Position numbers and translations under genes: made by a program. The notes beneath the pieces were generated by a model. The model made no database searches. It was not told where the DNA came from and worked only from the letters and a program-made list of their open reading frames with translations. 26,302 nt of DNA from Promethearchaeota archaeon (GTDB taxonomy: Archaea; Asgardarchaeota; Lokiarchaeia; Sigyniarchaeales; SOKP01): assembly GCA_048940645.1 (NCBI GenBank), contig JBHLOI010000042.1, positions 1-26,302 on the forward strand, read 5' to 3'. Of the stretch, positions 7,005 through 19,628 are shown piece by piece. Position 1 is the first letter of the stretch. Each line of letters begins with the position of its first letter.

Positions 7005-8229
7005 GTGATCAAGATTACTAATAATCAGGTAGATTTTACTACAAAGTATATTATTGAAACAAAATTTGAAATTAAGGGTGTGGTTGAAAAAAGCGATATA
7101 GTTGGCGCCATATTTGGTCAAAGGTAAATTTTAAAGCCATTTCGGCTAAATCGGCTAAACTGAGGGTCTCCTTTTAGATCTCGATTTAAGAGATCTTCAA
7201 AAATCAGGACGAATCGGAAGAATTGAAGTAGAAAACGAATCTAAGGAGGGGGTTTCTATTGGTATTATTAAAATTCCATCTTCTTTAACTAGAAAGGAGA
7301 CTGCATTATTGGCGGCAACTGTTGAAACTGTTACCCGTGTTGGACCTTGTGAAGCTAAAATCCGTCTAATTGATATTAGAGATGTACGGGAAAGAAAGCG
7401 CAAAAAAATCATTGAACGAGCAGCAGAATTATTAAAACAATGGGATCAAAAATCTCTTGAACCTAGTGAAATTGAAGAAAAAATAGATACAGATATTAAG
7501 CTTGGTGAAATTATAAAATGGGGTCCTGAAGGATTACCAGCAGGACCAGAAGTTGAAACTGATGATGATTTAATCATTGTCGAGGGACGAGCTGATGTTC
7601 TAAACCTACTTAGAATAGGGATAAAAAATACTGTAGCCGTCCAAGGAACCCATATTCCTAAATCAGTTATAGATTTAGCGAAAAAAAAGAAGAGCGTAAC
7701 TATATTCTCCGATGGAGATAGAGGCGGAGAATTAATTACAAAAGAGTTAATGCAGTTAATTAATGTAGACTTTATTGCTCGTGCTCCTGATGGATATGAA
7801 GTAGAAGAATTAACCAGGAAACAGATGATAAAGTCTCTCCAGAATAAGAGATCTTCAACAGAATCTTTAGAAAAATCAGGAGAAACATCTTCTGTTATAG
7901 AGAAAAAAGTTACAGAAACAAAGCTAAGTAAGCTACTAAAAAAACTTAAAGTAAAAAATCAATCAATCATAGCACAAGCATTAAAGACAATTCCATCAGG
8001 TCATAGTATCGGATTTAATAATAAACTTGAGAAATTATTTGATTTAACTGTAGGCGAATTATTTGAGGAGATATCAAAATACAACAAAACTGAATTTATA
8101 ATTATTGATGGAATTCTATCTAAACGTCTTCTAACACTGGTAATGAATATGAAAATCAAATTCATAGCATGTAAAAATAAAGAAGAAGAATTAACCATTC
8201 CAGAACAAATTATCGTTTATTATTTCTAA
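7005..8229 (+). CDS. dnaG: Archaeal DnaG (DnaG-type primase / exosome RNA-binding subunit); join(7005..7121,7159..8229), ~395 aa if spliced
   Basis: Exon 1 encodes ...TTKYIIETKFEIKGVVEKSDIVGAIFGQ. Exon 2, in another frame, continues TEGLLLDLDLRDLQKSGRIGRIEV and contains TOPRIM motifs IIVEGRADV and DGDRGG. The ORF-track start at 7309 omits the conserved N-terminal domain. Confidence 0.9.
7122..7158 (+). other. Candidate 37-nt bulge-helix-bulge/loop (tRNA-type) intron in dnaG mRNA
   Basis: Removal restores CAA|ACT (Q|T). GGUC(7116-7119) pairs with GGCU(7153-7156), each followed by AA^A. Inner pairs G7123-C7152, G7124-U7151, U7125-A7150; internal hairpin AGCC-AUUUC-GGCU. Confidence 0.7.
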
Positions 8230-19472: not shown

Positions 19473-19610
19473 GCCAAGGTGGCGTAGCCCGGAATCATGG
19501 GAGTTTTACCCTCCATTTTGGGTAGGAACGCACCAGACTGAAGATCTGGGTATCGCGAGAATTTTATCGCAATTTGCGATGAATCGCGAATTCAAATCTC
19601 GCCCTTGGCA
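19473..19610 (+). tRNA. tRNA-Phe(GAA) with two non-canonical introns (19493-19525 in the D-loop, ~19/20; 19560-19590 in the T arm, 53/54); mature 74 nt
   Basis: Acceptor GCCAAGG/CCTTGGC, D stem GCGT/ACGC, anticodon arm CCAGA-CT GAA GA-TCTGG, T arm GCGAG|TTCAAAT-CTCGC. Central helices GCCC/GGGT and CGCG/CGCG are each followed by 3-nt bulges. Confidence 0.92.
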
Positions 19611-19628
19611 CTCATTACTTCTTAAAAG

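Follow-up and report, generated by a model that had tools for sequence, protein, structure and literature searches.

We analyzed a 26,302-nucleotide (nt) contig of a Promethearchaeota archaeon (assembly GCA_048940645.1, contig JBHLOI010000042.1, positions 1 to 26,302 of the forward strand; hereafter the window) and observed that its dnaG gene is interrupted by a 37-nt insert at positions 7122-7158 (+). From comparative sequence evidence, we consider it very probable that this insert is an intron of the relaxed bulge-helix-bulge (BHB) type, of the HBh' kind, lying in the dnaG coding sequence, which would be removed from the pre-mRNA by the splicing endonuclease EndA together with a ligase. A first-pass annotation of this DNA had proposed such an intron, and the proposal now has strong comparative support, because the insert occupies the same site in 52 assemblies, its helix covaries, two more dnaG sites carry inserts that obey the same cut rule, and the genome carries genes for EndA and RtcB.

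The interrupted dnaG gene and its predicted splice motif

Exon 1 (7005-7121, +) opens with a GTG start and runs for 39 codons to ...SDIVGAIFGQ. Exon 2 (7159-8229, +) begins TEGLLLDLDLRDLQKSGRIGRI, comprises 356 codons plus a stop codon (8227-8229) and contains the Toprim domain identified with Pfam. As originally read, the insert splits the motif GAIFGQ-TEGLL exactly between the Gln codon CAA (7119-7121) and the Thr codon ACT (7159-7161). CAA is followed by AGG TAA, the TAA (7125-7127) being in the frame of exon 1, while a further TAA (7156-7158) lies in the frame of exon 2, and with the insert present the frame is shifted. In the archaeal DnaG profile NF003108 of NCBIfam, exon 1 matches positions 1-26 and exon 2 positions 27-280. 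Thus, the seam at 26/27 (here and below, a slash marks a junction or a cut) is residue-exact, with nothing gained or lost, and upon removal of the insert the 39 and 356 residues form a DnaG of 395 amino acids (aa). The earliest start codon in the exon-2 frame is a TTG at 7309, 50 conserved codons into exon 2, so exon 2 cannot be made alone from its conserved beginning. This is the sole dnaG of the assembly (3.83 Mb, 89.6% complete); a second intact copy, which the first-pass annotation had named as a sign of a pseudogene, is not present in the genome. BLAST of the 37-nt insert against its own genome gave no second copy, which rules out a repeat or a miniature inverted-repeat transposable element, and a scan of the window with Rfam found nothing at the insert, one tRNA-Gly being the sole match.

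The predicted motif is centered on a 4-base-pair (bp) helix. The exon strand GGUC (7116-7119, +), which consists of the Gly codon and the C of the Gln codon, pairs with GGCU (7153-7156, +) near the end of the insert through G-U, G-C, U-G and C-G pairs. The GGCU strand serves as the intron's guide to the exon, with one of its bases tracking the Gly wobble base. AAA follows each strand, giving a 5' bulge AA/A (7120-7122, +) with its predicted cut at 7121/7122, and a 3' bulge AA/A (7157-7159, +) with its predicted cut at 7158/7159. In canonical 37/38 tRNA introns, the cut falls after the second base of the bulge. Applied here, this rule would remove exactly 7122-7158, coinciding with the seam at profile positions 26/27 and yielding the 395-aa DnaG that had been predicted, with the caveat that in this genome four registers of removal are equivalent. 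On the intron side, an inner helix h' of 3 bp is formed by GGU (7123-7125, +) and AUC (7150-7152, +), and a small hairpin, AGCC-AUUUC-GGCU, occupies 7135-7147 (+). The first-pass annotation had described the inner helix as present and the outer one as poor, in agreement with our reading that no pair adjoins the 3' bulge.

Positions 7142-7159 (+) are a tandem 9-mer (TCGGCTAAA twice), in which the 3' strand of the hairpin repeats the guide strand. Within 7135-7159, the UCGGCU of the hairpin is the same as the UCGGCU of the guide strand three bases later. The 5' strand of the hairpin, AGCC, mimics the exon strand GGYC, and the introns at the upstream site described below are alike in this respect (GACU and GUCU). 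This likeness between hairpin and guide permits alternative pairings.

Conservation and covariation of the insert

Among 154 surveyed genomes from the order of this archaeon, 143 contained dnaG, and we checked their loci for the motif on both sides of the insert. An insert at the same Gln/Thr boundary was observed in 52 assemblies, 51 of them in the family of the window (f1), across 8 genera, and one in family f3. It is thus kept at one nucleotide-exact site in at least 9 genera. The insert is absent from families f2 and f4, the former including single-contig genomes of 4.4 Mb and 6.0 Mb. Within f1, about 70 of the 125 members with a dnaG match have no insert at either of the two sites seen in this family, 51 have it at Gln/Thr and 4 at the upstream site. 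The 52 inserts measure 29, 30, 31, 32, 34, 35, 37, 38, 39, 40 or 43 nt and represent all three phases (30, 18 and 4 loci by length modulo 3), and every one of them carries stops in both exon frames. Relatives without the intron read ...GGNCAA/ACNGARGG... at the seam, which is the predicted ligation product.

The flanks of the insert had been described as undegraded, and the intron-bearing relatives bear this out. Across the last 26 codons of exon 1, the mean pairwise difference at codon positions 1, 2 and 3 is 0.12, 0.10 and 0.48, and across the first 50 codons of exon 2 it is 0.20, 0.11 and 0.53, with no stops in either stretch; in exon 1 of the 51 intron-bearing relatives, position 3 varies some 4-5 times more than the other two positions. 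Judged by these patterns of change, both dnaG exons are under purifying selection in the intron bearers.

Aligning related Asgard dnaG loci was a check suggested by the first-pass annotation, and besides the same-codon insert it revealed a covarying 4-bp helix. Pairs of the proposed structure were counted in an alignment of 46 distinct sequences that carry the insert, together with flanks of 24 nt. The central helix joins exon GGNC to a GNCU that sits two bases short of the 3' end of the intron, and it is 100% paired, as are the GGUC and GGCU strands first noticed in the window. Its third pair, between the Gly wobble base and the intron, is C-G in 28 sequences, A-U in 7, U-G in 6, G-C in 3 and G-U in 2; counted over the 52 loci, the figures are 28 C-G, 9 U-G, 8 A-U, 5 G-C and 2 G-U, all of them standard pairs. 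Pairing reaches 93.5% of cells in the 3-bp inner helix, where GAU or GGU meets AUC and one compensatory change, from U-A to C-G, is seen; in the intron hairpin it reaches 94.9% where the sequences can be aligned. When the 3' partners were slid by 1-3 columns, pairing over the four tested helices fell from 94% to 25-52%. RNAalifold, unprompted, returned exactly the four central pairs. No gap separates the helix from either splice site in any of the 52 loci, where the 5' bulge reads AA/A (33 loci), AG/A (9), AA/U (8) or AA/G (2) and the 3' bulge reads AA/A in 49, the others being AG/A, AU/A and UA/A.

Two further sites in dnaG carry inserts of this kind, and at both of them the helix-bulge cut rule is obeyed with the junction inside a codon. 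The upstream site lies 16 nt 5' of Gln/Thr, where 30-31-nt inserts interrupt the Ile codon of KSD-I-VGA in four loci (L043, L050, L069 and L083, from genomes G042, G057, G089 and G115, respectively); none of these four genomes has the Gln/Thr insert. The motif here is AGAU-AU/A ... AUCU, GUCU or GUUU-AA/N, with bulges AU/A and AA/A or AA/U, and the predicted cut restores D-I-V. In G042 the helix strand is CGAU, with one mismatch. The downstream site lies 13 nt 3' of Gln/Thr, where a 28-nt hairpin insert is found in ten loci of another Asgard family (L096-L103, L105 and L106; family f19, genus g54). Its motif, GCCU-AC/A ... GGGU-AA/U, splits the second Leu codon of TEGLLGEDL, and removal restores TEGL-L-GEDL.

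In five other Asgard families, dnaG matched with lower scores; we considered these matches as further introns and rejected them, since they reflect the end of a contig or an interrupted linker of low complexity, and in G173 this linker break holds an A(10) run. One genome, G023, has an intronless and an intron-bearing dnaG on separate contigs (C40 and C91; loci L022 and L038, respectively), which probably reflects a mixed bin (6% contamination) and not two paralogs. A protein search with exon 2 returned no near-identical full-length DnaG for this species, and the closest public entries are truncated gene calls of 306-347 aa. These (P0002-P0006 and P0044) are N-terminally truncated proteins that begin at an internal TTG or ATG, exon 1 having been silently dropped by annotation.

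Predicted splicing and competing explanations

This genome encodes two EndA paralogs, located at L040:1453-2058 (-) and L041:1423-2040 (-). The alpha protein has the catalytic Tyr, His and Lys, and its best match in the PDB is 3p1z_B (E = 5e-34), the catalytic subunit of the Aeropyrum pernix heterotetramer, in an alignment that runs through the N-terminal ...KPR... segment. The beta-like paralog has no catalytic His. The ligase RtcB is encoded as well. In Asgard archaea, an (alpha-beta)2 EndA with an L1 loop tied to relaxed-BHB cleavage has been described (PMC5829648).

The insert with its conservation, the covariation of the helix and the genes for the enzymes are observed; from these we infer cleavage, ligation and circularization. 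Our model suggests that in the pre-mRNA the exon strand GGUC (7116-7119) would pair with the intron strand GGCU (7153-7156), making a central helix of 4 bp, closed on the intron side by the 3-bp inner helix and the small hairpin, and with a 3-nt AAA bulge following each central strand. A heterotetrameric (alpha-beta)2 EndA would then cut after the second base of each bulge, and RtcB would ligate the exons to give ...UUUGGUCAA/ACUGAGGGU... and the 395-aa DnaG. The predicted junction of the spliced RNA is TTTGGTCAA/ACTGAGGGT, and the predicted peptide is SDIVGAIFGQTEGLLLDLDLR, in the context ...GAIFGQTEGLL.... The 37-nt intron would be released, probably as a circle. As the unspliced mRNA encodes only a 40-aa peptide, DnaG synthesis would depend on splicing.

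Several observations weigh against this model. There is no outer exon-exon helix adjoining the 3' bulge, where U7115 faces C7160, and the arrangement is not a strict hBHBh' motif; since the 3' bulge has no helix directly closing it, the motif qualifies only as relaxed (HBh' type). A helix between the Phe codon UUY and the Glu codon GAR is possible in every sequence, 2 unpaired nt further out; however, it is dictated by conserved codons, so covariation has no purchase on it and its pairing proves nothing. The minimum free energy (MFE) fold of this segment as a single sequence is not a BHB (-15.9 kcal/mol, z = -0.78). Because of the tandem 9-mer at 7142-7159, it pairs UUUGGUC with the first of the two GGCUAAA copies instead of the productive second one, and pairing through the first copy would excise an unproductive 28 nt, with a stop following. 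The central helix of this genome contains two G-U pairs. Both bulges are AAA, so four removal registers yield an identical mRNA in this genome taken alone; the AA/U, AA/G or AG/A bulges of relatives narrow the possible registers. The intron-bearing relatives are also non-independent samples. Finally, an exact scan of JGI metagenome contigs for the spliced junction gave 0 matches, and a degenerate scan gave 4, all of them in long genomic contigs that represent intronless or upstream-site alleles and none in a transcript.

Could the ribosome cross the insert instead? Translational bypassing in the style of phage T4 gene 60 would have take-off at the Gln codon, skipping of the 37 nt and landing before ACT. 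The gap is short and structured, and a stop soon follows the presumed take-off site (TAA at 7125-7127, or UGA directly after CAA in several relatives), as bypassing would have it. However, the take-off codon CAA or CAG has no match in the last intron triplet, which is UAA in 48 of 52 loci (UAG, UAU, UUA and CAA occur once each). At the other two dnaG sites the junction falls within a codon (AU/A... and C/UC), an outcome that codon-wise re-pairing cannot produce, and bypassing gives no reason to expect the symmetric arrangement of a 4-bp helix and 3-nt bulges that recurs at three different sites. We therefore find bypassing hardly credible. That dnaG is simply broken, either as a pseudogene or as two separate polypeptides with exon 2 initiated internally, seems to us very unlikely. 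The frame, taken alone, is broken, and the public gene calls of the closest relatives are only truncated proteins (306-347 aa), yet this is the only dnaG copy of the genome, and both exons are under strong purifying selection across the 51 intron-bearing genomes. A TAA immediately before ACT closes the exon-2 frame, the first start (TTG 7309) lies 50 conserved codons downstream, and the insert is held at its nucleotide-exact site over at least 9 genera.

Group I and group II self-splicing introns have a ribozyme core of hundreds of nucleotides; inserts of 29-43 nt are far too short for either, and their size, together with the lack of an Rfam match there, excludes self-splicing introns. An assembly error is likewise excluded by the presence of the insert in 52 independent assemblies. 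The non-canonical 3' side of the motif could be taken as a sign that the insert is removed in some other way, for instance by another RNA-processing enzyme or by self-cleavage, or that it is an assembly or sequencing artefact, but the geometry expected from the EndA rule fits at all three sites, and we give these possibilities together very little weight. The preferred explanation is thus EndA-dependent splicing of the dnaG pre-mRNA.

Possible movement of the intron and other interrupted genes

A DnaG tree with 87 rows was computed from exon 2 minus its first 60 nt; the intronless f1 genomes sampled for it were those of genus g1. The Gln/Thr intron occupies the deepest f1 branches (g12, G003 and g17), and the 17 intronless g1 genomes fall within one clade of 18, whose remaining member is G042, a carrier of the upstream-site intron. 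This distribution fits an intron that is old in the Loki-type family f1 and was later lost in some lineages.

The four carriers of the upstream-site intron occupy four different places on the tree. The last 24 nt of this intron are identical at 20 positions (about 83%) to the Gln/Thr intron of G134. Read by eye, three of the four differences preserve pairs (GCC/GGC to GUC/GAC in the hairpin, GAU/AUC to AAU/AUU in h', the slash here separating paired strands), and the fourth changes the guide strand from GGCU to GUCU, retuning it. Compared in this way, the upstream-site intron has the look of the Gln/Thr intron moved to a new place and retuned to it. A Logan contig without the intron (L092, from ERR6430838) is 99.4% identical to the G042 gene (L043) downstream of the upstream site, with exon 1 only 84% identical; this looks like a short recombination patch that carried or removed the intron, or else a chimeric assembly. 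The comparison hints at introns coming and going on short recombined patches. The full-length Logan protein P0037, 99.7% identical to exon 2 of G042, was considered as a spliced product and rejected, since exon 1 of its contig is only 84% identical; the contig represents either a recombinant or another allele that lacks the intron.

Other genes of this genome are interrupted too, by short inserts that bring stop codons into conserved motifs, which answers in part the first-pass suggestion that the genome be scanned for such cases. The sole RNase HII match (G000:C86:1097-1726) has a 30-nt insert with a TAA (L093, 1121-1150) between GIDEAGR and GPVLGP. The sole PFK match (G000:C37:3362-4333, L094) has two stop-bearing inserts of 31 and 30 nt, the first of which fits GCGG-AG/U ... 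UCGU-AU/A by eye, whereas the second could not be fitted. The sole S27ae match (G000:C88:49914-50015, L119) has a TGA within it. A scan of the whole genome by motif alone (BHB geometry plus fusion of open reading frames) recovered dnaG among 4636 raw candidates, 280 of them with A-rich bulges, and we rejected it as an intron census because it is far too noisy in an AT-rich genome.

The first-pass annotation had also pointed to a tRNA-Phe with two relaxed-motif introns in the same window. A tRNA-Phe(GAA) with two inserts is plausible at about 19473-19611 (+), one insert lying in the D-arm region and the other between T-stem and T-loop. ARAGORN and Rfam both miss it, calling only the tRNA-Gly, and ARAGORN calls it as tRNA-Phe(GAA) after the two segments are deleted. 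Ten same-strand open reading frames near dnaG were compared with Pfam, and none appears broken: nine belong to distinct families (SecE, an SRP54-type GTPase, prefoldin and others) and one is unmatched.

It had further been suggested that the intron ties tRNA processing to RNA decay, loosely in the manner of HAC1/XBP1 splicing. We found no support for this link. As RNase HII, PFK and S27ae are interrupted too, and about 70 of the 125 f1 members do without a dnaG intron, no regulatory link specific to dnaG is needed. Rather than acting as a switch peculiar to dnaG, the insert looks to be one mini-intron among many that are tolerated. As proposed, the dnaG case would share with HAC1/XBP1 the removal of a short, frame-changing mRNA intron by a non-spliceosomal cut and ligation, with tRNA ligase or RtcB joining the ends. 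It differs in the enzyme and its target, which are Ire1 at twin stem-loops there and, as proposed, EndA at a BHB here, and in that HAC1/XBP1 splicing is a regulated stress switch, whereas nothing indicates regulation for dnaG.

The closest known case is the pre-mRNA intron of crenarchaeal cbf5 (Desulfurococcales and Sulfolobales), reportedly described by Watanabe in 2002 and by Yoshinari in 2006. Both are short BHB-type introns inside an archaeal protein-coding sequence, with a cleavage motif that in cbf5 is also often relaxed, in a host with a heterotetrameric EndA of broad specificity; both are patchily distributed, with gain and loss among relatives, and both are taken for frameshifts by gene predictors. 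In contrast to cbf5, the host gene here is dnaG and the host phylum is the Asgard (Loki-type) one, and splicing is predicted here, while for cbf5 it was seen by reverse transcription PCR. Moreover, in dnaG the insert may occupy any of three sites in 30 nt of one conserved motif, its upstream-site intron looks relocated and retuned, and comparable interruptions affect several other genes of this genome. In the papers searched, cbf5 is the only archaeal coding sequence with confirmed EndA-dependent splicing, and Yokobori 2009 (PMC2738675) states that pre-mRNA splicing had been confirmed for no other archaeal gene. The first-pass annotation knew of no described dnaG intron, and our full-text literature searches turned up no publication describing one, nor any on introns in Asgard mRNAs. 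On the comparative evidence, it is well supported that the dnaG intron would be a second archaeal coding-sequence intron of the cbf5-type class.

Archaeal tRNA introns offer the other comparison. Marck and Grosjean are said to have described, in 2003, non-canonical archaeal tRNA introns with hBHBh' and relaxed HBh' or hBH motifs. The dnaG intron resembles archaeal tRNA introns in its 4-bp central helix, half exon and half intron, its 3-nt bulges, its size and its presumed dependence on EndA and RtcB, and the candidate tRNA-Phe of the same window has two such inserts. It differs in that it sits in an mRNA, where no tRNA body can aid recognition, and in that codons (Gly GGN and the C of the Gln codon) constrain the exon side of the helix. 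Asgard tRNA genes have been reported to be heavily interrupted, in an account in which mRNA and dnaG go unmentioned (bioRxiv 10.64898/2026.10.13.758758).

The dnaG intron lies in the phylum closest to eukaryotes, is held across dozens of species and shows textbook covariation. Gene callers truncate or miss proteins split in this way, so that Asgard proteomes and completeness estimates are biased; the public DnaG of the closest relatives, at 306-347 aa instead of about 395 aa, is a case in point. The intron makes pre-spliceosome mRNA splicing testable and illustrates how an intron may be tolerated, moved and lost in an archaeon. On a wider model we are evenly divided: the dnaG insert may belong to a mobile population of BHB mini-introns of about 30-40 nt in many protein-coding mRNAs of Loki-type and other Asgard archaea, which would relocate from one site to another nearby as their 4-nt guide is retuned to a new exon partner, spread from species to species on short recombined patches and persist in codon-locked exons. 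If this is true, the closest prokaryotic relatives of eukaryotes would routinely need mRNA splicing by protein enzymes for core genes such as dnaG, RNase HII, PFK and S27ae.

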